In this document: piece after piece, positions 41,186 to 64,000 of the stretch
Position numbering within the stretch: position 1 is the stretch's first letter
How the letters are laid out: the number at the start of each line of letters is the position of its first letter
Assembly (NCBI GenBank): GCA_023250195.1
Contig: JAHFBF010000001.1
Coordinates: 406,661-470,660, forward strand
Length of the DNA stretch: 64,000 nt
Source: Candidatus Melainabacteria bacterium
GTDB taxonomy: Bacteria > Cyanobacteriota > Vampirovibrionia > 2-02-FULL-35-15
Direction: 5' to 3'
Notes under the pieces: generated by a model
Database searches by the model: none
Seen by the model: only the letters and a program-made list of their open reading frames with translations
What the model was told of the DNA's origin: nothing
Position numbers and translations under genes: made by a program

Positions 41186-41283
41186 AATTACTTTAATTAT
41201 GAGGAATAAAGGCTTTAACCTTCAAGTGATTTCATCGATTAAAAATTAAATGTTTCTTAAGAATACTATGATTAACAGATCAA

Positions 41284-41330: not shown

Positions 41331-41359
41331 CAAAAATAAAGTTACTTATTCAATTTACT

Positions 41360-42081: not shown

Positions 42082-42093
42082 AGTAGTCAGATT

Positions 42094-42883: not shown

Positions 42884-43014
42884 AGTAAGATTATATTATG
42901 TCAGCTGCATTTACGTTCTCACAGTTTATAGGCTTTGTCCGATTTATTCGGCAAAGCCGGTCAAATGTAATTACAAAGCCACGGGAAGTGCAAACTTGTT
43001 TTGCACTATAAAAA

Positions 43015-43722: not shown

Positions 43723-43725
43723 CAA

Positions 43726-45347: not shown

Positions 45348-45444
45348 ACTTAGCTTCTATGTAATGCTTCAATCGATCCTCACAAGATCGGATTTGCCGG
45401 ATAAACCAGACAAATCCTTTAAATACTAGAGCATTGTTTGTCAT
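45292..45444 (-). CDS. candidate RiPP precursor peptide (leader plus EAKCGEGQCGGDGK core)
   Basis: 50-codon ORF from ATG 45444 (alternative TTG 45474), 20 nt downstream of the CoA-transferase stop and overlapping the MNIO start; C-terminal core EAKCGEGQCG matches the repeat of 9841..10242; no Sec signal peptide. Confidence 0.5.
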   Translation of the reverse strand: MTNNALVFKGFVWFIRQIRSCEDRLKHYIEAKCGEGQCGGDGKNISKRKK

Positions 45445-45463
45445 ATCAGATAAAATATTAACA

Positions 45464-47260: not shown

Positions 47261-47267
47261 TTGGAAT

Positions 47268-47364
47268 ACGTCATTGCGAGGGCTTTAGCCCGAAGCAATC
47301 TCCCTAACTAATTCACGTTTTTGAGATTGTTTCGTCAGCCCTTTGGGCTTCCTCGCAATGACGT
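47268..47364. repeat. compound palindromic element (14-bp terminal inverted repeats ACGTCATTGCGAGG / CCTCGCAATGACGT with two internal hairpins)
   Basis: Lies 8 nt upstream of the CoA-transferase start and just downstream of the flavin-reductase stop; related to elements at 48071..48154 and 63073..63148. Confidence 0.75.
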
Positions 47365-47392
47365 GAATAGTTCTTTTTTTGTAATTCAGTAC

Positions 47393-48052
47393 TCATTTGT
47401 TATTTGGGTTCTCTCCAACAGGTATTTTTATCGTAGGCCTTGGTAAGCTAAATATATCAGTCACTCTTGCATAATCTGTACCGCCTAGCCTTGCTATCGG
47501 TTTTAATTCACTTAAAATAATTTTACCATCCTTATAAACATTCTCCTGGACATGAAAATATACAACTTCACCAATAACTACCGTTCCACCACCTGGTTTG
47601 TTTCCAATTTCTACCAGGTGTAACAACTTACACTCCATGTTTATTTTTGCTTCTTTTACAAGTGGTGGTTTAACCATATTTGCTCGTACAGGTGTTAAAC
47701 CACTTTCCTTAAACTCATCAACACCATAAGAATATTCAGCAGAACATTGATTCATCTTTTCAGCAATTTCTTCAGAAACAATATTTACAACAAACTCTTT
47801 AGTAACTTTTATGTTTTTTAAAGTGTCTTTTTCCTGTCCATCAGATCCACGAACAACCGGACAAAATAAAACAGTCATTGGCTCAGAACAAACACCATTA
47901 AAAAAACTAAAGGGGGCAAGGTTATAAATACCATTTGGGCTTACAGTAGAAACAAATCCAATTGGCCTTGGAACAATTGAACCAATAAGTAATTTATACC
48001 GATCCTGAAAAGGAATTTCTTTTGTATTTATAGAGATTTTATTTTCAGTCAT
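47393..48052 (-). CDS. flavin reductase-like (FMN-binding split-barrel) protein
   Basis: YKLLIGSIVPRPIGFVSTVSPNGIYNLAPFSFFNGVCSEPMTVLFC matches the flavin-reductase-like domain. Confidence 0.8.
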   Translation of the reverse strand: MTENKISINTKEIPFQDRYKLLIGSIVPRPIGFVSTVSPNGIYNLAPFSFFNGVCSEPMTVLFCPVVRGSDGQEKDTLKNIKVTKEFVVNIVSEEIAEKMNQCSAEYSYGVDEFKESGLTPVRANMVKPPLVKEAKINMECKLLHLVEIGNKPGGGTVVIGEVVYFHVQENVYKDGKIILSELKPIARLGGTDYARVTDIFSLPRPTIKIPVGENPNNK

Positions 48053-48070
48053 GAAAATATTTTAGCGTAT

Positions 48071-48154
48071 ATGTCATTCCCCGGCTTGACCGGGGAATCC
48101 AGAAACTCACACTAATAACTATCTCCTGGATACCCGCTTCCGCGGGTATGACAT
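48071..48154. repeat. compound palindromic element (ATGTCATTCC-hairpin-GGAATCC ... GGATACC-hairpin-GGTATGACAT)
   Basis: Two GC-rich hairpins (CCCCGG-CTTGA-CCGGGG; CCCGC-TTCC-GCGGG) bounded by inverted ATGTCAT/ATGACAT; 19 nt upstream of the flavin-reductase start. Confidence 0.75.
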
Positions 48155-48191
48155 TTTATTGTAATGGACATTTCTACATTACAATTATTAT

Positions 48192-48920
48192 ATGTTCCTT
48201 CAAAAAGATGAATTAAGCAAATTTAACTTTATCTCTACAAAAGAATTTCTTTTAGCACTATTGCTAATGCTAATTACAACAATCTCCTGCTTTATCATTC
48301 TGCCCGTTTTTCTCAAACAGAATTCACTTGTCCAGAAAGATTTTTTTGACTCAAATTACTTTGGAATTATTGTTTTTTTTCTTTCTTCTATATTCACCTT
48401 ATACATTACTTATTTCTTCTGTTGTCAAAGAAAAAACAGACCTTTAAAAGAAGGATTGTTTCTATCTATGCCATCAAACAAAATTTTTCTTATCTCTATT
48501 TTAATTGGAATCCTTATGCCTTTGCTCTCACTGCCAGTAATTTTTAAATTTGCACCAGATGAATTTTACGCAATGGATCTGATTAATACAAAAGCTGGTC
48601 TTCTTTATCTTTTTACATGTGCACTATTCGCTCCGATATTTGAGGAAATCTTTTATCGCGGTTTTATCTTTCCTTTTTTTCAAAGCAAATTAAATAGTTT
48701 CTGGGCCATTATAATCACTGCTTTATTTTTTGGATTTTCACATTTTATGAATATTGGAAATGCTCATATTTTGCTTAGTTTGTTTATTTTTTATGGCTTT
48801 GTTTTAACCTTAATCAGATACTTTTCAAACTCTTTAATCCCTTCCATAATCACCCATTTCGTTCATAATCTGACACTTATGATCAGCTTTTTTATAATGT
48901 CAAAGACTGCTTTAGGTTAA
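48192..48920 (+). CDS. CPBP-family intramembrane metalloprotease (CAAX protease / Abi-like)
   Basis: Conserved motifs FAPIFEEIFYRG (EExxxR), FGFSHFMN (FxxxH) and ITHFVHNL (HxxxN) in a polytopic membrane protein. Confidence 0.8.
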   Translation: MFLQKDELSKFNFISTKEFLLALLLMLITTISCFIILPVFLKQNSLVQKDFFDSNYFGIIVFFLSSIFTLYITYFFCCQRKNRPLKEGLFLSMPSNKIFLISILIGILMPLLSLPVIFKFAPDEFYAMDLINTKAGLLYLFTCALFAPIFEEIFYRGFIFPFFQSKLNSFWAIIITALFFGFSHFMNIGNAHILLSLFIFYGFVLTLIRYFSNSLIPSIITHFVHNLTLMISFFIMSKTALG

Positions 48921-48997
48921 GAAGATTAAGTTATTTTAAGGATTCAATTTCACTAGGAAAGACTTGCTAGGATAAAAATATATTTAAGGAAATTTCA

Positions 48998-50482
48998 TTG
49001 ATACCAACGAGACCAAAATCTTCTGAAGAACCTCGTGCCTATAATAGGCTTGAGTTCCTTGCATTGAGGATAAAACAAGGCTTAAAATCTGAGGCATTAC
49101 CAATAGAACCCGATAAACGAAGAGGATTAGTTGATGATCTTGAGAACCAGTTAAGGTTAGGGAATTACAACTATGCCGTTACAGTTGCACTTCGAGAAAT
49201 GGGTTTAACCAGCAAAGAGCTTCAAATAATTGGCGATACCTATACTCCTCCAGGTCTTTATTCCAAAGTAGAATCATCTAGAATACTTGGTTTTAATGAA
49301 TATAGAGATCCTGATTTATTAAAAGGCAAACCACTTGGTGGATTTAATGTTCAATCCATAACCACTCCATCCGGTGAATGGGCAAGGAAACCTACTCTTA
49401 TTGATGGAAGGACTTGCTTTGATAACAACCTGGAAATAGTAAGGTCTGATCTTTTAATGAGAGAACTTATTCAGAGATATTTACCCAGAATCATTGTTCC
49501 TGATGCATTTGCCCATGTAAGTGATAACTACATTATAAAAGTCTGGTCAAAGATAGTAGAGTCAGAAGAAATTAAACCATTAAACGATTCAGAGGAAGCA
49601 AAAAGAAAAGCAGAGGAAGAAGCACAATCCTTATGTAAAAATTATATGGAAGATTTATCTTTAGCATCTTTTCTTTTTGGAGTAAGAGACTTAAGGAAAG
49701 TTAACATCCGTTGGAAAAATGAGCAACCAGTTTTAGTTGATTTTGGAATGCTTGTTACAGAACCTTACATTTATCCAGTTGCAAAAGCAAAAACACTGAT
49801 AGAATCCGGCGAAACACCTTTCGTAGATCCTGCAGGAGGTAACAGATTAGAACCTTATCTGGCTAGACTGGAACAATGGAAAAGAGAATCCTATAAACCA
49901 GCTGAAATTCGTTCTATGATGCATGATTTAGGTTTTGATACTGCTTCAATTGACAAGTATCTCAAGACTTTATCTAAAAATATTGATTCATCATATGAAA
50001 CTAATATGAAAACTTTTATTGCTTTAGCTAACGGTACATTACCGGAAGACTTTTTAAGTAAACTTGGCTGGAGAGGCAATAAAACCCCAGGAACAAATAT
50101 TACATTTCCATCCCCTATTCCTGAAGAACTAGCTGAAGATAAGGACTTAGTAGCTAAATTGTTAATTGATCAAAGGAAAGAAATTGATTTCCCTAAACAT
50201 GGTCAAATTTTACTTGAAGTAGGTTCAAGTAATTTTGTAATTTTAGAAAAATTGCCTGATAAAGCCGGCTTTAAGATCACCTTTATTAAAGGCAGTGGAA
50301 AAGAAGAACTGGAAGAAGTAATAATTAATAAAGATAATTTCGTAATTGGTAGCAAGACAGGAGACCTTCTAATTGAAAACCAGTCGGTAGCTAGAAAAGG
50401 ACATGTTCAAGTAGAATTTAAAAATAATAGAGTTTTATTAACGCCACTGGATATAGACTATACTACTAAAATTTGGTCCTAA
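48998..50482 (+). CDS. hypothetical protein with protein-kinase-like core signature and FHA-like C-terminal domain
   Basis: TTG start with AAGGA RBS; YIIKVWSK (VAIK-like), VRDLRKVNIRW (catalytic-loop-like), LVDFGM (DFG), VTEPYIYP; C-terminal FVIGSKTGDLLIENQSVARKGHVQVEF...LTPLD resembles an FHA domain. Assignment is by eye only. Confidence 0.35.
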   Translation: MIPTRPKSSEEPRAYNRLEFLALRIKQGLKSEALPIEPDKRRGLVDDLENQLRLGNYNYAVTVALREMGLTSKELQIIGDTYTPPGLYSKVESSRILGFNEYRDPDLLKGKPLGGFNVQSITTPSGEWARKPTLIDGRTCFDNNLEIVRSDLLMRELIQRYLPRIIVPDAFAHVSDNYIIKVWSKIVESEEIKPLNDSEEAKRKAEEEAQSLCKNYMEDLSLASFLFGVRDLRKVNIRWKNEQPVLVDFGMLVTEPYIYPVAKAKTLIESGETPFVDPAGGNRLEPYLARLEQWKRESYKPAEIRSMMHDLGFDTASIDKYLKTLSKNIDSSYETNMKTFIALANGTLPEDFLSKLGWRGNKTPGTNITFPSPIPEELAEDKDLVAKLLIDQRKEIDFPKHGQILLEVGSSNFVILEKLPDKAGFKITFIKGSGKEELEEVIINKDNFVIGSKTGDLLIENQSVARKGHVQVEFKNNRVLLTPLDIDYTTKIWS

Positions 50483-50617
50483 TATTTTAAAATAAAGCGC
50501 CTTCCTTTTAATTTGTTAACTAATTCAAAGCTTTACAATTAATTTAATTGACAGACATCCAACATTAATTCTAAACTTACCTGGTATCTATAGATTTAAA
50601 TTAGAAGGATAAAATCA

Positions 50618-51043
50618 ATGTCTATCTCAGATCTAACAATTTCAGCAAAAATTCCTACCGGAATAAAAAGTCCACCTGGAAGTGTTAAAGAACTACTTCT
50701 TCCTCCAAAAATAAGAGAAAATTCAGTAATCCTGGAAATTAAACCTGATGTAAATTTAACTGGAAATGCATTACACCGTAATAAAAGAATCCTTAAAGCT
50801 GAGATTTTAGAAAAAGCAGGAAAGGCTGATGTTGTGATTTTACAGATTGGTAATGTCGGTATTGATAATGCAGGATATAAATTTTTAATTGATCTCGATA
50901 GAGAGCTAAAGTCAGAAGGCAAAATCTTAATTCTTTTTACTGAAGATGAAGTCTCATTAAAAGGCATGAGTGATTTGCCATTGCCTATTGTAGTTTCTAA
51001 TGTAAAAGATTTAGAAAAAGTAACTTCTTCTTTTGCAGCATAG
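50618..51043 (+). CDS. STAS-domain protein (anti-sigma-factor-antagonist-like)
   Basis: VVILQIGNVGIDNAGYKFLIDLDRELKSEGKILILF matches the STAS fold pattern including a Ser/Ala at the phosphorylation-site position; preferred over the antisense ORF 50596..50967. Confidence 0.5.
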   Translation: MSISDLTISAKIPTGIKSPPGSVKELLLPPKIRENSVILEIKPDVNLTGNALHRNKRILKAEILEKAGKADVVILQIGNVGIDNAGYKFLIDLDRELKSEGKILILFTEDEVSLKGMSDLPLPIVVSNVKDLEKVTSSFAA

Positions 51044-51050
51044 CTTTTAT

Positions 51051-52223
51051 TTAATTTTTGAGCATTTCTCTTGCAATAACCAGTCTTTGGACTTCGCTTG
51101 TCCCTTCACCTATTTCACAAAGTTTTGCATCACGCAAATATCTCTCTACCGGAAATTCTCTTATATAACCATATCCGCCATGTATCTGAATAGCCTTATT
51201 GCAGACTCTCATAGACATTTCTGAAGCGAAAAGTTTTGCCATTGATGCTTCAATCGTAAATGGCTTACCTGCAGCTGCCAAAGATGCTGCCCGATAAACA
51301 AGTAATCTTGCTGCATCAATCTCAGTTTTCATATCTGCAAGCATAAATTTTATAACTTCATGATCTTTTAAAAGTCTTCCAAACGTTTCTCTCTGATGAA
51401 CATATTTAAGTGATTCATCCAACGCTGCCTGTGCAAGCCCCAGAGCTAAAGCTCCAATACCTACACGCCCTTTATCAAGTATCATTAAAGTGTTTATAAA
51501 ACCTTGATTTAATTCTCCAAGTCTTTTTGAATCTGGGATTTGTACATCTTCCAGAATAAGTTCACTGGTATCAGACGATCTCATTCCCATTTTTTCAAGT
51601 TTTTTCCCGGCTTTAAATCCTTTATCACCCTTTTCTACAATAAAAGCAGTTATGCCTTTTTGTTTTTTTAGTGGATCAGTAACTGCCAGAACAACAAAAG
51701 TTTCACCAACCGATCCATTTGTAATAAACATTTTTGTACCATTAAGTACCCAGTTATTTCCATCTTTCTTGGCAGTAGTCTTCATTCCTGCTGCATCTGA
51801 ACCTGAACCAGGCTCAGTCAGTGCCCAGCCTGCAAGTTTTTTTCCACAGGCTAAATCCGGTAAATATTTTTGTTTTTGTTCTTCAGTGCCAAAACGTGCA
51901 ATATGTCCGGAACCAAGTCCATTATGTGCTGCTACAGTAAGTGCAAGTGAGCCATCTCCCCGGGATAATTCTTCTATAACCACTGCAATTGAAAGAGTAT
52001 CAAGTCCTGCACCTCCATACTTTGGATCAATTGCCATCCCCATAATTCCAAGGTTAGACAGTTTTTTAATTGTACTTAAAGGGACTTCTTCTTTTTCATC
52101 CCAATCTTTTGCATAAAGAATAACTTCTTTTTTTACAAAGTCACAAATGGTTTGTTGAAGTAAGAGTTGTTCTTCGCTTAATGAAAAAATCATTGTTTCT
52201 TTTTCTGTTATAGCAGCACTCAT
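51051..52223 (-). CDS. acyl-CoA dehydrogenase
   Basis: ACAD signatures incl. C-terminal QIHGGYGYIREFPVERYLRDAKLCEIGEGTSEVQRLVIAREMLK and the N-terminal ...GGAGLD... region. Confidence 0.9.
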   Translation of the reverse strand: MSAAITEKETMIFSLSEEQLLLQQTICDFVKKEVILYAKDWDEKEEVPLSTIKKLSNLGIMGMAIDPKYGGAGLDTLSIAVVIEELSRGDGSLALTVAAHNGLGSGHIARFGTEEQKQKYLPDLACGKKLAGWALTEPGSGSDAAGMKTTAKKDGNNWVLNGTKMFITNGSVGETFVVLAVTDPLKKQKGITAFIVEKGDKGFKAGKKLEKMGMRSSDTSELILEDVQIPDSKRLGELNQGFINTLMILDKGRVGIGALALGLAQAALDESLKYVHQRETFGRLLKDHEVIKFMLADMKTEIDAARLLVYRAASLAAAGKPFTIEASMAKLFASEMSMRVCNKAIQIHGGYGYIREFPVERYLRDAKLCEIGEGTSEVQRLVIAREMLKN

Positions 52224-52228
52224 TATTA

Positions 52229-52909
52229 TTATTCAGGTACAAAATAAACATCAGTAGGACTAAATTTGGAATTTCTAACAAACTTTGCTTTTACATCCAT
52301 CCCAACCCAGTCAAGATTTGGTTCCTGAGGATCTAATCCAACAATCCTTGTTAAAAAGCAAGTATCAATTCCCTTAAATTCAATCAGTGCAAGAACAAAA
52401 GGAGTTTGTTTTAAAAATGCTTCTGAACCAAAATAACAAACAGTAAAAGTATGAATCTTCCCTTTTTGTGACAACTCAATCCATTTACATTTGGAACCAC
52501 ATTCACTACATGACAAACGTGGCGTTGCAAACTTTGTATGGCATTCTTCACATTCTGTCCCCAGCAATCTTTTATTTGCCAGTCCTGCAAAAAATGGTGA
52601 GTCCTGTCCATAAGAATGAATATAATCAATATGGTACGGTTGCTTGATTATTATAGGACCATAATTTTCTAAATCTTTTAATCTTCTTTCATCCAATTCC
52701 TGGGGGAACGGTACATTAAATAGAATTGTTCCTTCATCATCCTCTGGAATAGCAGTTTTTATAGCGCTCCGCAATTTCTTGAAATCGCTCTGTTTTTCGC
52801 GGCTGATCTCTTTCGACATTCCGGTTTGTCGGAAAGACAGACCTACACTTGTTCCTTGGTCACCATTTTTTCCATTTGTTTCTATTTTTCTTTTTTTTAT
52901 CTTTTGCAT
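52229..52909 (-). CDS. Zn-ribbon/OB-fold (DUF35) protein, thiolase partner
   Basis: CxxC...CxxC zinc ribbon (CEECHTKFATPRLSCSECGS) followed by an OB-fold segment GKIHTFTVCYFG...LALIEFKGIDTCFLTRIVG; adjacent to a thiolase-like gene. Confidence 0.7.
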   Translation of the reverse strand: MQKIKKRKIETNGKNGDQGTSVGLSFRQTGMSKEISREKQSDFKKLRSAIKTAIPEDDEGTILFNVPFPQELDERRLKDLENYGPIIIKQPYHIDYIHSYGQDSPFFAGLANKRLLGTECEECHTKFATPRLSCSECGSKCKWIELSQKGKIHTFTVCYFGSEAFLKQTPFVLALIEFKGIDTCFLTRIVGLDPQEPNLDWVGMDVKAKFVRNSKFSPTDVYFVPE

Positions 52910-52949
52910 TTAATTACCTCTACAGGCAAACACGCTGATTTGCCACTAC

Positions 52950-54263
52950 TTAGCCTTCTCTCTCCAGAATAGAGACTGTCACATATGTACCTGTTCCAGC
53001 ATGGCTGTGAATAATTCCACGTTTTGAATTTTTCACTTGAAGAGTGTCATCTTTGAAATGTTTTTTAATTGAATTTTGTAACTGCCAAAGAGCAAAAACC
53101 CCCTGCATAAGACCTGTTGCTCCAACTGGATGTCCACATGCAATTAATCCACCTGAAGGATTAACAGGACAAATTGTTTTTTGTTTTAATTTTAATCCGT
53201 AATCAACACTTGGCATAAATGTAGCGCCTGACTCTGCAAAATTTCCACCTTCACCATACTTGCAAAGTCCCATATCTTCATAAGTTTGAATTTCACTTGA
53301 TGTATAAGCATCATGCAATTCAACAAAATCAATCTCTTTTAATGGATCTGTGATTTTTGCCATTTCATAAGCCTGTTTGGATGCCATACGCCCTGCTCTA
53401 AACGAATGAACTCCTGGATATTTTAAACCTTTATAATCAGATTCTTTTTCATGAGGAAGTAAGATTACTTTTTTATGCGGTCTGTCTGCCATTCTCATAG
53501 CATCAGTACCACGACCTATCCCTGTAACTTTTACCTTTGGCAAAGACTTCCTGCATGCTTTTTCAATTTTCTTTAATCCTGCTTCACTCGCTAAAAGTAT
53601 ACAAGCAGCTCCGTCACTCATTACACATACATCTCTACGGGTTAGCGGCCATGCAACCATTGGAGAATTTCTCACATCTTTAATCGAAAGTTTTTCCCTC
53701 TTTTGTGCATATGGATTATAAAAAGCATTTGCATGGTTTTTAACCGACACATGTGCAAGCTGTTCCGGAGTAGTCCCAAACTCCTGCATATGGCGTACAA
53801 CCATCATTGCATAATAGCCTGTATAAAAACCACCAACAGGATAATCAAAGCTCACATCAGAAGCAAGTGCAATAAACTCATTACCTTTCCAGGTGTTTAC
53901 ATGTGACATGGTTTCAAACCCAAAAATCAGACATACATCCATATTTCCGGATGCTACACTTTTCCAGCCTTCCTGAAATGAAAGTCCACCGGTAGCACCA
54001 CCACCTTCTACTCTGTGAGATGGTTTTGGGCAGAGCCCTAGATAATCCTGAACCATAGTGGCCCCTTTTAACTGACGTAAAAAGTGATCACTAAAATATG
54101 AAGCGACTGTTCCATCAATTAATTCATATGCCTGTCTTGGTTCAATACCAAGATCTTCAAGTAAAAGTTCATAAGATTCTTTTACTATTGCAGGAAATGT
54201 TTTATCTGGCCTGGCTTTTGCAAATTTACTTATGCCGCCCGCTACTACATATACTGATCTCAT
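52950..54263 (-). CDS. thiolase-like protein (SCP-x-type 3-ketoacyl-CoA thiolase family)
   Basis: Thiolase fold motifs: N-terminal VYVVAGGISKFAK, active-site Cys region VCVMSDGAACILLASE, C-terminal GGLIACGHPVGATG. Confidence 0.8.
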   Translation of the reverse strand: MRSVYVVAGGISKFAKARPDKTFPAIVKESYELLLEDLGIEPRQAYELIDGTVASYFSDHFLRQLKGATMVQDYLGLCPKPSHRVEGGGATGGLSFQEGWKSVASGNMDVCLIFGFETMSHVNTWKGNEFIALASDVSFDYPVGGFYTGYYAMMVVRHMQEFGTTPEQLAHVSVKNHANAFYNPYAQKREKLSIKDVRNSPMVAWPLTRRDVCVMSDGAACILLASEAGLKKIEKACRKSLPKVKVTGIGRGTDAMRMADRPHKKVILLPHEKESDYKGLKYPGVHSFRAGRMASKQAYEMAKITDPLKEIDFVELHDAYTSSEIQTYEDMGLCKYGEGGNFAESGATFMPSVDYGLKLKQKTICPVNPSGGLIACGHPVGATGLMQGVFALWQLQNSIKKHFKDDTLQVKNSKRGIIHSHAGTGTYVTVSILEREG

Positions 54264-54306
54264 AGTTTTTTCATTTTATCACGGCAGAGGTTTACAATAA
54301 TCTTAT

Positions 54307-54927
54307 ATGAACATAACAATCCCTAAAAGCTTTTGGTATGAAGAACTTGATTCCACTATGGATGAAGCTAGAAGATTAATACAAAGTGGAAAAATTAAAG
54401 ACATTGCATATGTAATTGCAAATTCACAGACACAGGGACGGGGAACACGTGGAAGAAAGTGGTCTTCTCCTTCAAACTCAGGAATATATCTGTCAGTTAT
54501 TCACAAACCAGAAGATAAAAAGTTTTTTGAATTAACTACATTATATACACTGGCCTGCGGAATTGCATGTGTAGAGGCAATTAAAGAAATCACTGGCATT
54601 GAAACAAAACTAAAACCAGTAAATGATATTTATTTCAATAATAAAAAACTGGGCGGGATTTTAGTTGAGAGCAGGTTACATAAAAAAGGAATTTCGTTTT
54701 TAATCAGCGGCATAGGAATTAACACACACACAACAAGACATGAACTTGACAGGAATGCAGTAGAACCAATATCTCTTGAAGAGATAATGAAGGAAGAAGA
54801 TTTTGAAAAATTTTCAAAAGAAAAGCTTATTGAAAGTCTTATAAAGAAAACCTGTTTTTGGTATGAAAAAATATTCGACGATAAGCAGTCTTCAATTCAG
54901 AAGAAGTGGGAGAATTATAAGTTATAG
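54307..54927 (+). CDS. biotin--protein ligase catalytic domain protein (BirA-like, no N-terminal HTH)
   Basis: Hallmark SQTQGRGTRGRKWSSPSNSGIYLSV (GRGRxGRxWxSPxGxGLYxS) and KPVNDIYFNNKKLGGILVE. Confidence 0.8.
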   Translation: MNITIPKSFWYEELDSTMDEARRLIQSGKIKDIAYVIANSQTQGRGTRGRKWSSPSNSGIYLSVIHKPEDKKFFELTTLYTLACGIACVEAIKEITGIETKLKPVNDIYFNNKKLGGILVESRLHKKGISFLISGIGINTHTTRHELDRNAVEPISLEEIMKEEDFEKFSKEKLIESLIKKTCFWYEKIFDDKQSSIQKKWENYKL

Positions 54928-55455
54928 ATCTGCTACCAGTTCCACTTTGTTTTTAATCAAATCCTCTACTGTAAAGAATAGAAACCTTGGCGGTTTTAGT
55001 CCAAAGTTACTCATCTCTATATTTAAATAGCCCGTAAATATGATTTTTTTATCTTTTGATCTATTATTTAACTTTACTGTTACTCTTTTTATTTCTCCAT
55101 GAAACAAAACATCTCCCGATAATTCAATAACCTTTACCCCATTTATCTGTATGGGCTTAGTAAGTATTGAAGCAAATTGAAAATCTGGATATTGTTCAAT
55201 GTTTATAAACTTTTTAAATATTGGATTTTTTGATGTGAACTTGGCTTTTAATTCAAGTCTTTCCAGCATTTCCGAGTTTTCACTTAAACCAATTTCACCT
55301 GTCGTCGGTAATGCCTTTCGCTTAAATGGAAATCCAAAACTAGTTAAAGTATAAGTAATCTTACTTTTCTTTTCATCAAGCTGAAAAGTTTTTGCATTAG
55401 CTTCTATGCAACAAATAAAAATGCAAAAAATTGTAAATATTGTTTTCCAAAACAT
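54922..55455 (-). CDS. YceI-like secreted protein
   Basis: Signal peptide; size and beta-rich pattern with VLFHGEIKRVTV resemble the YceI polyisoprenoid-binding family; weak. Confidence 0.4.
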   Translation of the reverse strand: MFWKTIFTIFCIFICCIEANAKTFQLDEKKSKITYTLTSFGFPFKRKALPTTGEIGLSENSEMLERLELKAKFTSKNPIFKKFINIEQYPDFQFASILTKPIQINGVKVIELSGDVLFHGEIKRVTVKLNNRSKDKKIIFTGYLNIEMSNFGLKPPRFLFFTVEDLIKNKVELVADL

Positions 55456-55495
55456 AGGTATAATTTAACTTGAATCAACCCTAAAATCATATCAA

Positions 55496-57004
55496 ATGAA
55501 AGAAACTAAAAAAAACAATAGATTGTTTTGGACTTTTGTTATTGCTTTTTTGATTATTATTTTAATTCCTTTCTGTTTTAAAGATAGATATATCTGCGAA
55601 AATTTGAAACTGAAAGAAGCCATAAGCTGCTTATCTTATAGCGATTTAGTAAACCTTACAAAACAACCAATACCAAATTCACCACTTTACTTTAAACTTC
55701 AAAAACAGTTAAATACTCCTTATATATTTAATAAAACTTTCCTTACCATGTTCTCAGGGCGCGATAAATCGCGCCCATACAATTTTTTACGTCTTGCACA
55801 TTGGAACATACAAAGAGGGTTTAATGTAACTGCAATTAAAACCATCCTAAGCAATAAATACCGGTACTACAATAGTTATAAAAATAATCTGGATAGTTCT
55901 ACACAAAGTGATTTAAAAAAAGAACTGGAAGATATCTCCAGAAGCGATATTATCTCCTTAAATGAAGTCGATGTTGGAATGCCAAGAACCGACTATAAAA
56001 ATATTGCATCTGAAATAGCAATGGCACTTAATTATAATTATGTTTTTGCTACTGAGTTTATAGAATTAAATTCAATAATTTACAAACAAAGGATTAATCC
56101 TGCTCGTTACCTGGGTTTACATGGAAATGCAATTATTTCCAGATACCCAATTAAATCTGCTCGTATAATCAGGCTTCCTGAATACTATAAGTGGTACGAA
56201 GCTGAGATTCAAAAGAAATCTATGCTAGAAAGTGTCCGTCGAGTTGGTGCAAAAGGAGCATTTAGTGAAAATATTACAAAAAATGAGGTACGGCGTGGGG
56301 GGCGAAATGCCCTTATTGCAGATATAGAACTGCCAAATAAAGAAATTATTACAGTGGTTTCAACACATCTTGAAGACAGATGCTTCCCTGACAAACGTTT
56401 TCAGCAATTTGAATATTTACTTTCAAACTTAAGAACTTTAAGGAGATCTGTTGTACTTGCCGGTGATTTTAATACCACTACTACAGACTCAGCCCCTGCA
56501 TCATTGAAGAAAGAACTTGTAAAAAGGATTAGAGATCCTCACTATCTTACCCGTCAGGCAGTTTTAGCAATAATTCCTATAGGTGGCATACCAGGAGTAG
56601 TCAATCTTGCTTCTTTTGGCTTAAGCAAATTAATTCAATACAAAGATCCTACTGCACCAAGTATTCCAATATTTCTTCCAAACCAGGAGAAAAAATTTTT
56701 TAACTATTTAAAAGATTTCCGTTTTACTGATGGTGAAGTCTTTGATATAAGTGGAGATAGAAGTTCAAATGGTAAAAGAGGATTGCTTGCAAGCTCAAAC
56801 GAAAGACAACTAAAAGGTTTCGAAAGTACATTTAAATTCATAGAACCGCGAGTTATTGCATATTATAAGCTTGACTGGTTTTTTGTAAAACCAAAAGGAA
56901 ACAGGTTCAAACCCTTTAACGGTCAAACATTACAACTGATTAACCATGTATATCCTGGAAGAGTTTCTGATCATGAGCCTATTATTGTAGATTTAAATTT
57001 ATAG
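55496..57004 (+). CDS. endonuclease/exonuclease/phosphatase (EEP) family protein
   Basis: EEP motifs LRLAHWNIQRG, GLHGNAIISRYPI, VVSTHLEDR, VLAGDFNT, SDHEPIIVDL; N-terminal TM anchor; contains in-frame palindrome at 55757..55776. Confidence 0.8.
   Translation: MKETKKNNRLFWTFVIAFLIIILIPFCFKDRYICENLKLKEAISCLSYSDLVNLTKQPIPNSPLYFKLQKQLNTPYIFNKTFLTMFSGRDKSRPYNFLRLAHWNIQRGFNVTAIKTILSNKYRYYNSYKNNLDSSTQSDLKKELEDISRSDIISLNEVDVGMPRTDYKNIASEIAMALNYNYVFATEFIELNSIIYKQRINPARYLGLHGNAIISRYPIKSARIIRLPEYYKWYEAEIQKKSMLESVRRVGAKGAFSENITKNEVRRGGRNALIADIELPNKEIITVVSTHLEDRCFPDKRFQQFEYLLSNLRTLRRSVVLAGDFNTTTTDSAPASLKKELVKRIRDPHYLTRQAVLAIIPIGGIPGVVNLASFGLSKLIQYKDPTAPSIPIFLPNQEKKFFNYLKDFRFTDGEVFDISGDRSSNGKRGLLASSNERQLKGFESTFKFIEPRVIAYYKLDWFFVKPKGNRFKPFNGQTLQLINHVYPGRVSDHEPIIVDLNL
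55757..55776. repeat. GC-rich palindrome GGGCGCGATAAATCGCGCCC inside the EEP-family CDS
   Basis: Translated as ...SGRDKSRP...; shares the 16-bp core GCGCGATAAATCGCGC with the intergenic palindrome at 20482..20507. Confidence 0.8.
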
Positions 57005-57088
57005 ATTTTTGTTGCAACAAAAATAAAATCTTTATTAAGACCAGAAAGACAATTTTCTTATGGAGTTATAATCAAAACAACTTTTTAG

Positions 57089-57544
57089 ATGGTTTCGTGG
57101 GATGGGGGAACATACATGAGTATTACTGCTGATTTAAATAGAGTCAAAACTAGATTAGGTCCTAATCAAAGACATGACACTTATGTTGGTGTCAAAGAAA
57201 GAGGCTCACAAAGGCATTTTTCAATTACACCAACAAATATAGGTCCTGGAAATAATGTCAATGTAGAGGTAACTTCAGGTCCTGTTTTCTTTTTTGGCGA
57301 TTTATATAATGCAGTAAGTGGTGAAAGAAAGCCTTTAGAAAGAATAAAGACATCGATTGCTTCCCCAGCTGTTTTCAGAGCACCGCTTAAAATCGGAGAC
57401 TCCGTAATTCTTAATAAGAGAGGTGAGGATTCCAATCCTGATGAAGTAGCTCCTGAAGAAGACGTAGTTCAGTATGATTTTTGTGGTGTAGAAGGCAATG
57501 AAGCTCTTTTTACTATTGCCTCAAGACGATATACTATTGATTAA
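57089..57544 (+). CDS. hypothetical protein
   Basis: ORF only; no recognisable motif. Confidence 0.3.
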   Translation: MVSWDGGTYMSITADLNRVKTRLGPNQRHDTYVGVKERGSQRHFSITPTNIGPGNNVNVEVTSGPVFFFGDLYNAVSGERKPLERIKTSIASPAVFRAPLKIGDSVILNKRGEDSNPDEVAPEEDVVQYDFCGVEGNEALFTIASRRYTID

Positions 57545-57545: not shown

Positions 57546-59156
57546 TTAAACTAAGATTTTCAATTCTTTCTGCAGCATTTCTCTGATTTTATACTTTTGG
57601 ATTTTTCCATTCGCCGTCATTGGAAATTCATTTACAAACTTTATGTAATAAGGAATCTTATAGTTTGCAATTTTACCGCAGCACCACTGTTTTGCCTCTT
57701 CTTCAGTCCATTGTTCATTTGGTTTTAATTTTATTATTGCTGCTGCCTGTTCCCCAAATTTTTGATCCGGGACTCCAACTACCTGTATCATTTCTACTTT
57801 TGGATTTGTCATAAAAAACTCTTCTGTCTCAGCAGGATAAATATTTTCACCGCCGCGAATTATCATATCTTTTATTCTGCCTACTATTCTACAAACCCCA
57901 TTCTTATCCATAGCAGCCAGATCTCCTGTATGCATCCAGCCTTCAGCATCTATAACATCTTTTGTTTTATCCGGCATTTTATAGTAGCCCTTCATGGCAT
58001 TGTAACCATATGCACAAAGTTCACCGGCAGTATCAAAAGGAATTTCTTTCTTGGTTTCAGGATCGACAATTTTTACTTTTACATTTTGATGTGCTTTTCC
58101 CACTGTTCCAACTTTTATTTCAAGTGAGTCATCATATCTGGTCTGAGTAATTAACGGTGATGCTTCTGTAAATCCATAACCAATCGTAATTTCAGTCAGA
58201 TTCATTTTTTCAATAAGCTGTTTCATAAGTTCCATCGGACAGGGCGCTCCTGCAATTACACCTGTTCTAAGTGAGCTTAAATCATAATTATTAAAATCAT
58301 CCAGGGCAAGTTCAGCTATAAACATAGTCGGCACACCATATAATGCTGTACATTTTTCTTTATGTACTGCTTCAAGCGTTTTCCGCGGCTCAAAAACATC
58401 TGATGGAAAAACCATTGTAATTCCATAATTTACACAAACCAGAGTCCCAAGCACACATCCAAAACAATGATATAAAGGCACAGGGATACAAATAGAATCT
58501 CTGTTTGTAAGATTCATATTCGCACCACAGTAATATGCGTTATTTAAAATCCCAAGATGCGTTAACTGTGCACCTTTTGGAAAACCTGTTGTCCCTGAAG
58601 TATATTGAATATTTATTATATCTTCATGATTTAACTTATTTTCATGTTCTGCCAAATCTTCATCAGATATATTTTTTGCAAGTTGAGATAAATCATCCCA
58701 GCACATAAAATCATTTATTTGTTTTGTTCTGATTGTTATAACTCTTTTCAATTTGCCTGTTTTTTTCCTGTCTACACTGCTTAAAACATCAATCATCGAT
58801 GAATTTTTAAAATACGGGGTTAAAAACAAAGTAGTAATGTCACCCTGCTCAAGTATGTATTCAAGTTCATGACTCTTAAGTGCCGGATTAATATTTACCA
58901 GGACTGCTCCAACTTTTGCTGCTGCAAACTGCAAAATTACCCACTCAGGACAATTTACCGCAAATATCCCTATATGTTCACCTTTTTGAATATGAAGAGC
59001 AAGAAGTCCTTTGGCAATTTCATCTGTAAGTTTTTTAAAGTTTTTATAAGTTAATCTGTAATTCAGATCACAAAAAACAATTGCGTCTTTATCTGCATAC
59101 TTAAGTGCAGTACTATCTAAAAGTTGTCCAATGGTCTTAGTAATAAGGTCTGTCAT
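57546..59156 (-). CDS. acyl-CoA synthetase (AMP-forming fatty-acid--CoA ligase)
   Basis: AMP-binding motif IQYTSGTTGFPKGAQLTH, GYGFTE, and C-terminal GDLAAMDKNGVCRIVGRIKDMIIRGGENIYPAETEEF. Confidence 0.9.
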   Translation of the reverse strand: MTDLITKTIGQLLDSTALKYADKDAIVFCDLNYRLTYKNFKKLTDEIAKGLLALHIQKGEHIGIFAVNCPEWVILQFAAAKVGAVLVNINPALKSHELEYILEQGDITTLFLTPYFKNSSMIDVLSSVDRKKTGKLKRVITIRTKQINDFMCWDDLSQLAKNISDEDLAEHENKLNHEDIINIQYTSGTTGFPKGAQLTHLGILNNAYYCGANMNLTNRDSICIPVPLYHCFGCVLGTLVCVNYGITMVFPSDVFEPRKTLEAVHKEKCTALYGVPTMFIAELALDDFNNYDLSSLRTGVIAGAPCPMELMKQLIEKMNLTEITIGYGFTEASPLITQTRYDDSLEIKVGTVGKAHQNVKVKIVDPETKKEIPFDTAGELCAYGYNAMKGYYKMPDKTKDVIDAEGWMHTGDLAAMDKNGVCRIVGRIKDMIIRGGENIYPAETEEFFMTNPKVEMIQVVGVPDQKFGEQAAAIIKLKPNEQWTEEEAKQWCCGKIANYKIPYYIKFVNEFPMTANGKIQKYKIREMLQKELKILV

Positions 59157-60125: not shown

Positions 60126-61502
60126 ATGCCGGAAACCCTTACAAAACAAATCAGCAAAGCAAAAGAAATTGCAAGTTATGTTTTATCACAAAAGAAAGAA
60201 TCACTTTCAAAAGAAGTTATTCATGAAGTAAAAAGAAGAATTATTGATAGCCTTGCCTGTGCAATAGGGGCATATGATTCAAAGGTCTGTAAAATTGTTT
60301 TAAAGGCATGTTCAAAAATAAAAGGAAAATATAAAGCTCCCTTATTTGGAAAAGGAAAAGAAGTTTTTTATGAGGAAGCTGCTTTTGCAAATGGGGCACT
60401 TGTTAGATATCTGGATTTTAATGATACTTATTTATCTTTAGAGCCTGCTCATCCATCAGATAATATTGCACCTCTATTAGCATGTGCACAAGCATATGGA
60501 AAAAGCGGTCTTGATTTAATCCTGGCTATTGCAATTGCTTATGAAATACAATGTCAGCTCTGTGATGGTGCATCACTTCGTGCTAAAGGAATTGATCATG
60601 TTACTTACGGAGCATTTTCCACTGCATGCGGTGCAACTGTATTAATGGATTTAGATGAAGAACAGTTGGAAAATGCACTTGGTATTGCCGGTGTTTGTAA
60701 CATTGCCACACGTCAGACAAGAGTCGGCGAAATGTCCATGTGGAAAGCATGTGCATTTGCTAATGCTGCAAGACAGGGACTATTTGCAGCAAGATTAGCA
60801 AAAGAAGGAATGACAGGACCTGCTCCAATATTTGAAGGAACAAAAGGGTTTGAAACCTTAGTTTCAGGACCAATGAATTTAAAACTTCCAAATATTGGCG
60901 AACCACCAAAGAAAATTCTAGAAACCTATATTAAACCTTATCCTGTAGAATATCATGCACAGAGTGCAGTTGAAGCTGCTATAAAATTAAACAAAGAGGG
61001 TTTAAAAATTGATCAGGTTCAGGAAATGACTGTTTATACTCATGGCGCTTCTTACCAAATAATTGGTTCAGAACCTGAGAAGTGGAGACCTACATCAAAA
61101 GAAACCGCTGATCACAGCCTCCCTTACTGCACAGCTATTGCACTTCGGGATGGAAACGTAACCGATGAAAGTTTTCATAAGAAAAACTACAAAGACTCTA
61201 ATTTGCTAAAGTTCTTAAAGAAAATAAAAGTAGTTGAAGATCAAAGATATACTTCTGATTATCCAAAAAGTTTTGGAAACAGATTAGAGATAAATTTATT
61301 TGATGGAAAGAAAATTATAAAAGAAGTTTTACATCCATTTGGTCACCCAAGAAATCCTATGAAGGATGAGGATGTATTTAGTAAGTGGAGAACACTGGCT
61401 GGTCCGCACCTTGGACAAAATAATATTGAAGAGCAGATTGAGAAAGTAATGATGCTTGAGCATCAAAAAGGACTCTCCACATTAATGCCAGAAGTCAGTT
61501 AA
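60126..61502 (+). CDS. prpD: MmgE/PrpD-family protein (2-methylcitrate dehydratase-like)
   Basis: RRIIDSLACAIGAYDS, HPSDNIAPLLACAQAYGKSGLDLILAIAIAYEIQCQL and downstream PrpD-type segments; methylisocitrate lyase gene lies downstream. Confidence 0.75.
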   Translation: MPETLTKQISKAKEIASYVLSQKKESLSKEVIHEVKRRIIDSLACAIGAYDSKVCKIVLKACSKIKGKYKAPLFGKGKEVFYEEAAFANGALVRYLDFNDTYLSLEPAHPSDNIAPLLACAQAYGKSGLDLILAIAIAYEIQCQLCDGASLRAKGIDHVTYGAFSTACGATVLMDLDEEQLENALGIAGVCNIATRQTRVGEMSMWKACAFANAARQGLFAARLAKEGMTGPAPIFEGTKGFETLVSGPMNLKLPNIGEPPKKILETYIKPYPVEYHAQSAVEAAIKLNKEGLKIDQVQEMTVYTHGASYQIIGSEPEKWRPTSKETADHSLPYCTAIALRDGNVTDESFHKKNYKDSNLLKFLKKIKVVEDQRYTSDYPKSFGNRLEINLFDGKKIIKEVLHPFGHPRNPMKDEDVFSKWRTLAGPHLGQNNIEEQIEKVMMLEHQKGLSTLMPEVS

Positions 61503-61654
61503 ATCCAGGTAAACAAATATTTTTTTGATCTCTTTTTTATCATTTTTTCTAATTTTAGAAAATAAAAATATTTTAATCTTAAGTCCTATAAAAATTTCCG
61601 GGGGGCCTTTATATAAGTGCAAAGGTTAATCAAGAAAAAAATCAAGGAGATAAT

Positions 61655-61858
61655 ATGTCAGAATTATATTTGAATGCAATAAGAAATGCTCAACAGCAAG
61701 CACAAGAAGTTGAAAGGAGAATCCAAACAACAACAACTGCACTTGCTACGCCTAATCCAGCAGATAGAGCAAGATTAAAGGAAGCAATAATCAACTTGGA
61801 AAACAAGAGTTATTTTGAAGGTCTGTTCTGGCAATTCTTGGGGATATCACCTCCATAA
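61655..61858 (+). CDS. small hypothetical protein (cassette ORF 1)
   Basis: Preceded by AAGGAG RBS within a leader that is duplicated at 62760..62806; followed by a hairpin/T-tract. Confidence 0.35.
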   Translation: MSELYLNAIRNAQQQAQEVERRIQTTTTALATPNPADRARLKEAIINLENKSYFEGLFWQFLGISPP

Positions 61859-62055
61859 TAGCCCTTAAGTTTATATTCATCAGCAAATGTAAGTTCAAAA
61901 AGCCATCTCAAAAAAGGTGACTTTTTTTATAAAGTGGAAGGTGAAAAAATAAAGTTAGCCTTATTGGAGCATTATTCTCTATTTTTAATCAACCTATAAC
62001 CTGTTATAGTTATACTCCATAGTGGTAGAATGGCATTATGGGGAATTGAAATGAC

Positions 62056-62367
62056 ATGGCAAAGAAAGAATCACTAAATAAAAACTGGACCGAAATTGGT
62101 GTGGTAAATGGCCCTGATCTTCAAAATAGGATCGTTATAACTCCTATTGTAACTTGGTTAAAACAACATATTGATAGCTTCAAAGTATTTATAAACTCTA
62201 GTGGTAATGTACTTTTAAAACCAATGATTAGTCTTCCGCTAGAAGAAGCATGGCCTTATCAAGATCCCAAGATATTATCCAACGTTCTAAAAGGTATCGA
62301 GGAAGCAAAAGCAGGAAAAGCCAAGCCATTTGATTTAAAAAAATTAAAAGAATTAGATGATGTTTAA
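62056..62367 (+). CDS. putative type II antitoxin (AbrB/MazE-like swapped-hairpin)
   Basis: RIVITPIVTWLKQHIDSFKVFINSSGNVLLKP resembles the SpoVT/AbrB fold; stop overlaps the start of the downstream toxin-like gene. Confidence 0.45.
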   Translation: MAKKESLNKNWTEIGVVNGPDLQNRIVITPIVTWLKQHIDSFKVFINSSGNVLLKPMISLPLEEAWPYQDPKILSNVLKGIEEAKAGKAKPFDLKKLKELDDV

Positions 62368-62653
62368 TATCAAATTAACTCCTTTAGCTTTGAAACAATT
62401 GGAGGAGATAAAAAAACGAGAGCCAAGGCAAGGATTACTAAAGCAAATCATAAAGACAATCAGATTTTTAAGTGAAAATCCAAGACATCCTTCTTTGCAT
62501 ACTCATAAAAATCAAAGGTTGAGCAATCTACATGGTTTAGATATTTTTCAAGTATATGCACAGAACTACACTTCAGGTGCTTACCGTATCTTCTTTACTT
62601 ATTCTGCTAAAGATGAAATTACTATTACTTCTATAGAAGCACATCCAGATTAG
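62357..62653 (+). CDS. putative type II toxin (RelE/ParE-superfamily-like)
   Basis: 98 aa basic protein; C-terminal ...SGAYRIFFTYSAKDEITITSIEAHPD resembles the RelE/ParE C-terminal pattern; 11-nt overlap with the upstream small gene. Confidence 0.45.
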   Translation: MMFNIKLTPLALKQLEEIKKREPRQGLLKQIIKTIRFLSENPRHPSLHTHKNQRLSNLHGLDIFQVYAQNYTSGAYRIFFTYSAKDEITITSIEAHPD

Positions 62654-62806
62654 ATATTTATAAATAACAAATATCATAGACAAAAAAGCCTATGTAAAAA
62701 CTCTCCCCATTAATGCCAGAAGTCGGTTAAATCCAGGTAAACAAATATTTTTTTAGCTTGATATAAGTGCAAGGTTAATCAAGAAAAAAATCAAGGAGAT
62801 AAAATT

Positions 62807-62977
62807 ATGTTTATATTAGATTTAGAAATTAGTTTGGCACCGGTTAACCAGTTAATTAGTACTGCTGTCAGACGATTTCAGGAAAGAGAACAAGCACAAA
62901 TAAAACCATTCTCATTCCTTGAGCAAAGTCCGCCATATAAGAAGGACTATTTTGAATACCCTCCTTCTGACAGATAA
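62807..62977 (+). CDS. small hypothetical protein (cassette ORF 2, unannotated)
   Basis: 56 codons, MFILDLEISLAPVNQLISTAVRRFQEREQAQIKPFSFLEQSPPYKKDYFEYPPSDR; same duplicated leader/RBS and 3' hairpin as 61655..61858 but unrelated coding sequence. Confidence 0.3.
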   Translation: MFILDLEISLAPVNQLISTAVRRFQEREQAQIKPFSFLEQSPPYKKDYFEYPPSDR

Positions 62978-63072
62978 CTTCTGTTGTAAGCTGAACTGTT
63001 TTAAAAAGCCATCTTAAAAAGGTGGCTTTTTTGTTTTTGATTATAAATCAGTTTTGCTCAATTAATGTTTTC

Positions 63073-63148
63073 ATGTCATTCCCGCGAAAGCGGGAATCCA
63101 GTATCGGTAGCAGTCTTGCCTGGATTCCGGGTCAAGCCCGGAATGACA
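63073..63148. repeat. compound palindromic element (TGTCATTCC-hairpin-GGAATCC ... GGATTCC-hairpin-GGAATGACA)
   Basis: Hairpins CCCGCGAAAGCGGG and CCGGGTCAAGCCCGG bounded by inverted TGTCAT/ATGACA; 45 nt upstream of the prpB start; same family as 48071..48154. Confidence 0.75.
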
Positions 63149-63193
63149 AGGAAATGACAGAAGAATCTAAAATGAGCTAAAATAACTTCTGTA

Positions 63194-64000
63194 ATGAAAC
63201 CTTTCCACCAGCTTTTAAAAGAACAAAAAACTCTTGTTATTCCTGGAGTATTTAATGCAGCATCTGCTCTACTGGCAAAAAACGCTGGATTTGAGGCATT
63301 GTATTTATCTGGTTCTGGCATTGCCACAGGATGTTTTGGTGTTCCTGATCTCGGGATTACAACGTTAGAAAATGTCTGCGAAGAGACACGAAGAATTACA
63401 AACGTAAAGGCGTTGCATGCAACGTCTCTTCTGGTAGATGCCGATACCGGTTTTGGCAATGAAGCCGATGCGGTAAAACAATTAGAAAAATCCGGCGCAG
63501 CAGGCATCCATTTAGAAGATCAGGTTTTTCCGAAACGCTGTGGTCACAGGCCAGGCAAAGAAGTAATTTCCCCTGAAGAGATGGTTTTAAAAATTCAAAA
63601 TGCAATAAAAGCAAGAACAAATTCAGATTTTTTTATAATTGCAAGAGTAGATTCAAGAAACGTTATAGGATTTGACGATGCCATTGAAAGAGCAAAAAAA
63701 TATCAAGATGCAGGGGCAGATGCAATATTTGCAGAAGCGCTTGAAAGTAAGGACGAGTATAAAAAGTTTGTTGATACTTTAAAGATTCCTGTATTAGCTA
63801 ATATGACTGAATTTGGCAAGACTCCTTACCTTTCAGTCTATGAGTTTGAGTCAGTAGGAGTACGTATGGTCATTTTCCCTTTAACTGCATTCAGACGAAT
63901 GATGAAAGCTACAGAGGAAGTGTATCGTATTATCAAAAAGGAAGGAACCCAGAAGCCAATACTAAACAGCATGCAAAGCAGGGATGAACTTTACCGACTT
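63194..64000 (+). CDS. prpB: 2-methylisocitrate lyase (ICL/PEP-mutase superfamily), 3'-partial
   Basis: Not in the ORF track because it runs off the window. ATG at 63194, open to 64000; MKPFHQLLKEQKTLVIPGVFNAASALLAKNAGFEALYLSGSG...VDADTGFG...GIHLEDQVFPKRCGHRPGKEV...ARVDS contains the KRCGH active-site motif. Confidence 0.85.
   Translation, partial: MKPFHQLLKEQKTLVIPGVFNAASALLAKNAGFEALYLSGSGIATGCFGVPDLGITTLENVCEETRRITNVKALHATSLLVDADTGFGNEADAVKQLEKSGAAGIHLEDQVFPKRCGHRPGKEVISPEEMVLKIQNAIKARTNSDFFIIARVDSRNVIGFDDAIERAKKYQDAGADAIFAEALESKDEYKKFVDTLKIPVLANMTEFGKTPYLSVYEFESVGVRMVIFPLTAFRRMMKATEEVYRIIKKEGTQKPILNSMQSRDELYRL

Follow-up and report, generated by a model that had tools for sequence, protein, structure and literature searches.

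In Rhs, CdiA and type VI secretion system (T6SS) effector-immunity arrays, sequential C-terminal displacement has been proposed to proceed via homology-facilitated illegitimate recombination (PMC5361080), and displacement at polymorphic toxin loci is credited there to Jackson et al. 2009 (PMC2935791, as cited in PMC5361080). In such arrays, incoming DNA delivers a fresh 3′ end together with cargo to a conserved upstream anchor gene; the previous 3′ end and cargo persist further downstream as orphans with a short piece of the conserved region, the newest unit sits beside the anchor gene, and no dedicated recombinase is needed. Here we describe a locus that appears alike in all of these respects: the 1.7-kb block between prpD and prpB in a 64,000-nucleotide stretch (hereafter the window) of a Candidatus Melainabacteria genome (GCA_023250195.1, contig JAHFBF010000001.1, positions 406,661 to 470,660 of the forward strand). 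It also departs from the known arrays. Its anchor is a metabolic housekeeping gene, the tail of which is simply exchanged for an equivalent one; as cargo it carries two tiny, homolog-less open reading frames (ORFs) and a toxin-antitoxin pair in place of toxin-immunity pairs; there are only two units; and the repeat spans a non-coding leader as well.

The anchor gene, prpD (60126..61502; the genes, repeats, leaders, terminators and sites of this locus are all on the + strand), belongs to the MmgE/PrpD family and encodes a 2-methylcitrate dehydratase, with Pfam matches to MmgE_PrpD_N (2.4e-80) and MmgE_PrpD_C (5.9e-43) and 75–91% identity to other Melainabacteria prpD genes. An exact-match look-up of the window prpD gave no match, probably on account of a different recorded start codon. 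The gene is intact. Its last 31 nucleotides (nt), together with the 24 nt past the gene, form a 55-nt block, A1 (61472..61526), which contains the genuine stop codon (61500-61502) and recurs as A2 (62700..62754) with 53 of 55 positions identical. A1 is the functional tail, GLSTLMPEVS-stop, and A2, which still translates as KLSPLMPEVG-stop, is a displaced, non-functional copy of the tail and its 24 downstream nt. Downstream of each lies a 43-nt leader, B1 (61613..61654) or B2 (62762..62806), the two being identical but for one extra A; this 5′ leader is unstructured and A-rich and carries the Shine-Dalgarno sequence AAGGAGA a few bases ahead of an ATG. The gap between A and B is 85 nt in copy 1, where it is filled by an AT-rich spacer (61527..61612) found in that copy only, versus 2 nt in copy 2. 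The window holds neither a third copy of A nor a further copy of B, and neither dinucleotide shuffles for A nor shuffles for B gave any match. The motif GGTTAAT-N-AATCAAGGAGA occurs at two places only in the 64 kb, both of them leaders.

The first-pass annotation of this DNA had already described the duplicated prpD 3′ end and leader, and its account of what the duplicated parts enclose also holds. Thus, as it had stated, the two leaders precede different, unrelated small ORFs: ORF1 (61655..61858, 67 amino acids) and ORF2 (62807..62977, 56 amino acids), which start 4–7 nt downstream of AGGAG, have no similarity to each other in any frame. The similar 3′ hairpins it had pointed out (61894-61926 and 63000-63032) are 79% identical, and both have a T tract. 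Terminator 1 (61897..61927; −7.4 kcal/mol) is the cassette terminator in weakened form, its stem having a C·A mismatch, and terminator 2 (63003..63041; −14.5 kcal/mol), returned by the terminator scan, is a strong intrinsic terminator with a 13-bp stem and a T tract. Between the units lies the toxin-antitoxin-like pair that it had also proposed, the second gene of which matches Pfam ParE_toxin. The block is bounded on the right by prpB (63197..64000, cut by the window end), a methylisocitrate lyase gene of the PEP-mutase family (Pfam PEP_mutase, 1.1e-46). Across the whole arrangement identity is a mosaic: A and B are 96–97% identical between copies, the terminators 79%, the ORF bodies not at all, and identity drops abruptly at the repeat edges. 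Leftward extension of the similarity between A1 and A2 is not significant (p about 0.5–1), with anchored tests marginal. There is no composition anomaly across the block.

The sequence stems from a metagenome-assembled genome, and the same samples contain related strains; both facts speak for the possibility, raised as a concern along with the original description, that two strains or a repeat had been collapsed into a false tandem. Independent contigs across the junctions exclude it. Two contigs of assembly ERZ27280116 (k=141) are 100% identical to the window, one (L138) covering prpD, A1, B1, ORF1 and the antitoxin gene and the other (L137) the antitoxin and toxin genes, A2, B2, ORF2 and prpB. 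In ERZ27301951, a 2312-nt contig spans ORF1 to prpB, and a contig from run SRR14366787 (L139), for which only the order was compared, has the gene order of the window. Since every junction is crossed by contigs of at least three separate assemblies and a k-mer of 141 is longer than either repeat (55 and 43 nt), the arrangement is no assembly artefact; that explanation is effectively refuted already and is scarcely conceivable.

By its prpD, the window belongs to the non-photosynthetic Melainabacteria, known mostly as groundwater metagenome-assembled genomes, and we compared its junction across about 17 distinct related lineages. In 10 of these, prpD and prpB are adjacent or overlapping (0–35 nt), and in the closest relative (L067, 91% amino-acid identity) they overlap through TAATG. 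In the other seven, something lies at the junction: palindromes resembling repetitive extragenic palindromic (REP) sequences or miniature inverted-repeat transposable elements (MITEs) alone in L070, L071 and L077; an IS5-type transposase remnant (Pfam DDE_Tnp_1) with a REP remnant in L003; a 71-residue ORF with a REP remnant in L072; and leader/terminator cassettes in L001 and the window. Because the empty site is the commonest state and the insertions differ among the seven lineages, the junction is, on sequence comparison, a real insertion hotspot, as the first-pass annotation had suspected, and the window's 1.7-kb block is derived. The same annotation had further spoken of site-specific insertion; this part lacks support, as no recombinase, attC-like fold or conserved core was found in the sequences covered below.

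The most informative of these relatives is L001, whose cassette is identical in L140 and L141. There, the prpD stop codon is followed by half a REP unit, a decayed tail relic, a spacer, a leader, a 191-residue ORF and a terminator. The relic (5975-6019) aligns with window A with a score of 22 (p<2e-4) and a 1-nt deletion, and its position corresponds to that of A2. The copy-1 spacer of the window has its homologue in the stretch that separates relic from leader in L001 (6020-6076; local alignment score 15, shuffle p about 0.004), so that A1, spacer and B1 are collinear with relic, spacer and leader. Further on, B2 plus the first 26 nt of ORF2 is 88% identical over 72 nt to L001 6076-6144, the coding part of which specifies MFILDL, the first six residues and the only ones that ORF2 shares with the 191-residue ORF. 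The L001 leader is 80% identical to B1, and its terminator is 89% identical to terminator 2 and 84% to terminator 1. Since the functional prpD tail of the window is closer to the L001 relic (24 of 30 positions) than to L001's own functional tail (about 62%), the sequences suit a relic that corresponds to A by vertical descent and a present L001 tail acquired later as a replacement. Nucleotide identity between the two genomes is no more than about 80% in the flanking genes, where no recombination tract is visible, and 83% in an intergenic region with a promoter elsewhere in the locus; by this comparison, leader and terminator look vertically inherited and constrained, while the ORF bodies are unalignable in any frame. 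Genomes of both types are present in a single sequencing run (SRR14366787, which yielded the window-type L139 and the L001-type L141), so they could exchange DNA, with donors at hand.

Serial 3′-end displacement anchored by homology in prpD is, in our view, the best reading of these data, held with a confidence that stops somewhat short of even; serial displacement by homology-facilitated illegitimate recombination has precedent (PMC5361080; PMC3240628). The proposed history has two steps. In the first, ancestral to the window and L001, a unit with a single gene would have lodged behind the prpD stop codon and ended the ancestral prpD-prpB overlap; the gene, a small ORF beginning with MFILDL, would have been preceded by the spacer and leader B and followed by a terminator. 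In the second, recent and confined to the window lineage, DNA of a close relative would have recombined homologously inside prpD and joined illegitimately 30 nt ahead of the recipient's prpD stop codon. The incoming DNA would have carried the same prpD tail, spacer and leader, followed by new cargo, namely ORF1, terminator 1 and the ParE-type toxin-antitoxin pair; prpD would have stayed intact because a complete new end, A1, was brought along. The old tail A2, with leader B2, ORF2 and terminator 2, would have been shoved downstream, leaving the youngest unit next to prpD. L001 would represent an independent displacement of the same ancestral tail.

Several observations carry this reading. An intact anchor gene, a displaced anchor 3′ end downstream of the insert, abrupt drops in identity and mosaic conservation, taken together, fit 3′-end displacement. 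The ancestral unit can be read from L001, where not only relic, spacer and leader are collinear with copy 1, but the start of the ORF and the terminator match the N-terminus of ORF2 and terminator 2. The sequence immediately left of A2 (62683..62699, AAAAAGCCTATGTAAAA) is similar to the cassette terminator in its left arm and loop: 62683-62700 (18 nt, the final base being the first of A2) is three edits from AAAAAGCCATCTTAAAAA, with four other such sites in 128 kb, both strands counted. It may therefore be a truncated terminator, which is tentatively what one would expect at the broken end of an incoming fragment.

Other points weigh against displacement. Neither the donor allele nor the pre-insertion allele (prpD-A-B-ORF2) is present in any retrieved contig, and no recombination tract is seen in prpD or prpB, where a conspecific donor would leave none visible. 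The spacer is missing from copy 2, so that an extra deletion is needed. The truncated-terminator interpretation of the A2 junction is post hoc, and the prpD sequence left of A1 resembles the same motif, which makes the junction sequence ambiguous. Finally, the two displaced tails could go back to one ancestral junction, anchored comparison of the stretches left of the relics giving p about 0.01–0.05; gene conversion would then have to account for the 96% identity between A1 and A2.

The same stretch left of A2 bears on a close rival of displacement, judged on the unlikely side: a head-to-tail duplication in situ of the ancestral unit (A, spacer, B, ORF and terminator) by unequal or illegitimate crossover between the terminator loop and the prpD tail, after which the body of copy 1 was replaced or overwritten by ORF1, terminator 1 and an inserted toxin-antitoxin pair and the spacer of copy 2 was lost, with gene conversion perhaps keeping A and B nearly identical. 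A head-to-tail junction is expected to look as the left edge of A2 does, abutting a terminator-like arm and loop at three edits, and by sequence this edge would tentatively suit either such a junction or a broken incoming end. The A-run AAAAAGG, present in both the prpD tail and the terminator loop, offers microhomology for the crossover, and the two window leaders resemble each other more than either resembles that of L001. However, copy 1 has a complete terminator and, 750 nt on, a separate half-terminator, for which a single duplication is insufficient. With nothing in common between the ORF bodies, and terminators at just 79% identity where A and B reach 96–97%, foreign DNA is needed in any case. 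Duplication also leaves the independent tail relic of L001 unexplained.

That the repeats rebuild the target's 3′ end (A1/A2 53 of 55, prpD intact) while flanking the newer block, that the same junction is occupied in several lineages, and that three different cargoes have leader and terminator in common could alternatively be understood if A/B were an attachment (att)-like site at which a trans-encoded site-specific recombinase inserts cassettes serially, in the manner of an integron or a surrogate-end element. We regard this as improbable. Pfam was run on the 20 ORFs of 38258-57544 and on the ORFs from 59209 onward; the ORF lying between these sets (57546-59156) has an AMP-binding counterpart in L140. 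No recombinase or integrase was found in the scanned window ORFs, neither in the block nor in the 25 kb upstream, and the annotation of the L140 neighbourhood and of the 6 kb past the L001-type locus lists none. The block itself encodes only ORF1 and the toxin-antitoxin pair, with no element-encoded integrase. There is no structured attC-like site, the single-stranded DNA folds of 62654-62770 having z scores of −0.25 and +0.91 on the two strands, and the unoccupied sites of the 10 relatives have no conserved core, their tails being diverged coding sequence. The other occupants of the junction (REP, transposase remnant, 71-residue ORF) are without A and B, which were likewise not found in viral contigs or in any other fetched locus. 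In addition, the repeat is not a pure target duplication, in that it includes the cassette leader and its copies differ by the 85-nt spacer. The displaced tail of L001 seems to reach further into prpD than that of the window, pointing to different joints. A dif/Xer-like interpretation of A, judged by eye, was also dropped, the arms not fitting the 11-6-11 palindrome.

The locus can also be set beside known site-specific systems. Integron cassettes resemble the units described here in being small and single-ORF, in having one orientation and one site with the newest member nearest the insertion point, and in commonly counting toxin-antitoxin genes among their passengers. Unlike them, however, no IntI, attI or attC is found at this locus; the units carry their own Shine-Dalgarno leader and intrinsic terminator, the 3′ ends of the cassettes being plain intrinsic terminators; and coding sequence from the end of the adjacent gene forms part of the repeat. 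Elements that target 3′ ends, such as tRNA-targeting islands and the tycheposons of Prochlorococcus (bioRxiv 10.1101/2020.12.28.424599), similarly keep their target intact by supplying a replacement 3′ end; the displaced end becomes the far-side direct repeat, and tandem arrays with partial att repeats are possible. In contrast to these, the present block is only 1.2 kb, has no integrase or other mobility gene, and appears to have its repeat boundaries at different places in the window and in L001. On sequence grounds, homology-driven displacement or duplication fits better than an integrase-type cassette system, and the best explanation of the 1.7-kb block is a small hypervariable islet built stepwise by ordinary recombination, neither cassette-encoded nor integrase-type.

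ORF1, ORF2 and the 191-residue ORF of L001 each retrieved only themselves among 5.8 billion proteins, and none of the three has a Pfam, NCBIfam or PADLOC match. The AlphaFold2 (AF2) model of ORF1 (predicted local distance difference test, pLDDT, 76) is a predicted two-helix hairpin (residues 3-31 and 35-62), with no fold match in the PDB. Homology of ORF1 to the L001 ORF was suggested by one 34-residue stretch (shuffle p=0.02) and set aside as not robust; the remaining cargo pairs, and tblastx in all frames, gave none. An exhaustive phmmer search for a remote homologue of the L001 ORF returned only a repetitive, T/N-rich protein of 1185 residues (eight stretches), which was judged compositional. 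Translation of both small ORFs, starting from the Shine-Dalgarno leader they share, is probable: every cassette has a frame that runs from the conserved ATG without a stop nearly as far as the terminator (shuffle P of 0.0066 for ORF1, 0.017 for ORF2 and <5e-5 for the L001 ORF). The codon score is mildly coding-like for ORF1 (0.19, best of six frames) and ambiguous for ORF2 (0.09).

These open frames are pertinent to a further alternative, according to which the leader, first codons and terminator constitute a cis-regulatory unit for read-through from prpD to prpB, acting as an upstream ORF, an attenuator or a 3′UTR-derived RNA, with the ORF bodies as unconstrained filler. Conservation of leader and terminator at 88–89% between species whose flanks are about 80% identical, with unalignable bodies between them, and the placement of the terminators ahead of prpB are what it would predict. 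The open frames, though, argue for selection on translation of a full-length product. The leaders have no significant fold (z +0.64 and −0.41), an Rfam search produced only sub-threshold, terminator-like matches and no known structured RNA, and most relatives manage with a direct prpD-prpB overlap. We therefore consider a purely regulatory unit improbable.

An equally long shot is that the shared leader with its first codons and the shared terminator are the portable homology arms of an integrase-free "expression slot" through which unrelated small genes are swapped in by Melainabacteria populations. Each gene may then arrive ready for translation and termination, exchange requiring homologous recombination alone. 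Directly after terminator 1 lies a candidate degenerate third leader, B3 (61925..61953), for which the evidence is weak: its local alignment to B2 scores 14, with p about 0.02–0.03 from shuffles and from a scan of the remaining window. This B3-like stretch tentatively hints that the toxin-antitoxin pair itself occupies a former slot, which would be bounded by the B3-like remnant and the truncated terminator.

The toxin gene of that pair (62357..62653, 97–98 residues) belongs to the ParE/RelE superfamily. Its match to Pfam ParE_toxin (PF05016, E 4.5e-5, 24.4 bits) is above the gathering cut-off of 23, and it matches TIGR02385 (RelE_StbE) weakly. A Crinalium plasmid carries a homologue with 38% identity (E 4e-25), and further matches are on cyanobacterial plasmids. 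The putative antitoxin gene (62056..62367, 103 residues), whose stop codon overlaps the toxin start, is assigned by position alone: the protein has no match in Pfam, NCBIfam, PADLOC, a PDB sequence search or plasmids, and its AF2 model is poor (pLDDT 51). Upstream of it, a candidate operator palindrome (CTATAACCTGTTATAG, 61994..62009) can be read from the sequence. In its ParE_toxin match, small overlapping upstream gene, upstream palindrome and plasmid homologues, the pair resembles type II toxin-antitoxin systems of the ParE/RelE kind; it differs in its putative antitoxin, which falls into no recognisable family and is not related to the protein paired with the nearest toxin homologue, that of Crinalium. 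On the Crinalium plasmid (NC_019734; L142 1-538), this closest plasmid homologue adjoins a tyrosine recombinase gene and has an unrelated, 184-residue upstream partner, an arrangement that illustrates partner shuffling in this toxin family. We view the pair at the prpD-prpB junction as a selfish passenger, which may stabilise the block.

Between terminator 2 and prpB, the window contains a REP/MITE-like palindrome (63075..63149, no strand assigned; GTCATTCCCGCGAAAGCGGGAATCC...GGAATGAC) just upstream of prpB, with a DNA fold of −23.3 kcal/mol (z = −5.1) and a related copy in the window at 48128-48152. Its family is found at the same junction in L077, L072 and L003. More generally, two REP sequence types, GTCATTCCCGCGAAAGCGGGAATCC... 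and GTCATTGCGAG...CTCGCAATGAC, are present in at least six Melainabacteria lineages, a few bases from the prpD stop codon or just ahead of the prpB start (L077 815-890; L001 5884-5925; L003 7384-7401; just after the prpD stop in L070 and L071). From these positions, REP elements seem to target, or to persist at, this junction. Two terminators now stand between prpD and prpB in the window, and a promoter-like site just ahead of prpB (63154..63183, ATGACA-18-TAAAAT, 10 of 12 consensus positions) is made up in part of the REP end; REP ends may supply a −35 box (ATGACA) for prpB, and the candidate REP-derived promoter may now drive or restore prpB expression. The idea that the REP element splits a third, still older relic of the tail (about 63050-63196) was considered and rejected, the sequence past the REP being homologous to that past the REP in L072 and L077.

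Some features of the relatives deserve separate mention. The insertion in L072 (5252-5740) is 490 nt long and comprises its own Shine-Dalgarno sequence, the 71-residue ORF (no Pfam match), a hairpin and the REP remnant, with no A or B repeat. The IS5-type DDE transposase remnant of L003 (7372-7744, − strand; DDE_Tnp_1, E 1.9e-7) lies directly past prpD at a contig end and has in-frame stop codons. In L009, prpD matches in two overlapping segments (residues 1-334 and 356-458; 5379-5404), which suggests a frameshift, a pseudogene or an assembly error.

Two further observations concern the window at large. At 43726-45347 (− strand), a gene for an enzyme of the MbnB/TglH/ChrH family (DUF692; Pfam E 1.3e-95), which modifies ribosomally synthesized and post-translationally modified peptides (RiPPs), adjoins a gene for a DUF2063 protein; by its sequence, the pair suggests a small RiPP-type gene cluster. 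At 41360-41917, about 20 kb upstream of the locus and amid housekeeping genes, lies a gene for an ORF6N-domain protein (Pfam E 7.4e-38). The ORF6N domain is common in regulators of phages and mobile elements.

Taken as a whole, the locus is a real but fairly ordinary instance of genome plasticity, a variant of a known evolutionary process that for now leaves general views unchanged. It is, on the displacement reading, an operon junction in a little-studied uncultured phylum that gains small genes without dedicated mobility machinery, and it would provide a clean, datable case of 3′-end displacement outside the toxin loci where the process was first described. If it is true that the leader and terminator serve as swap arms, the locus would also offer a way to follow the birth or exchange of small genes that have no homologs.

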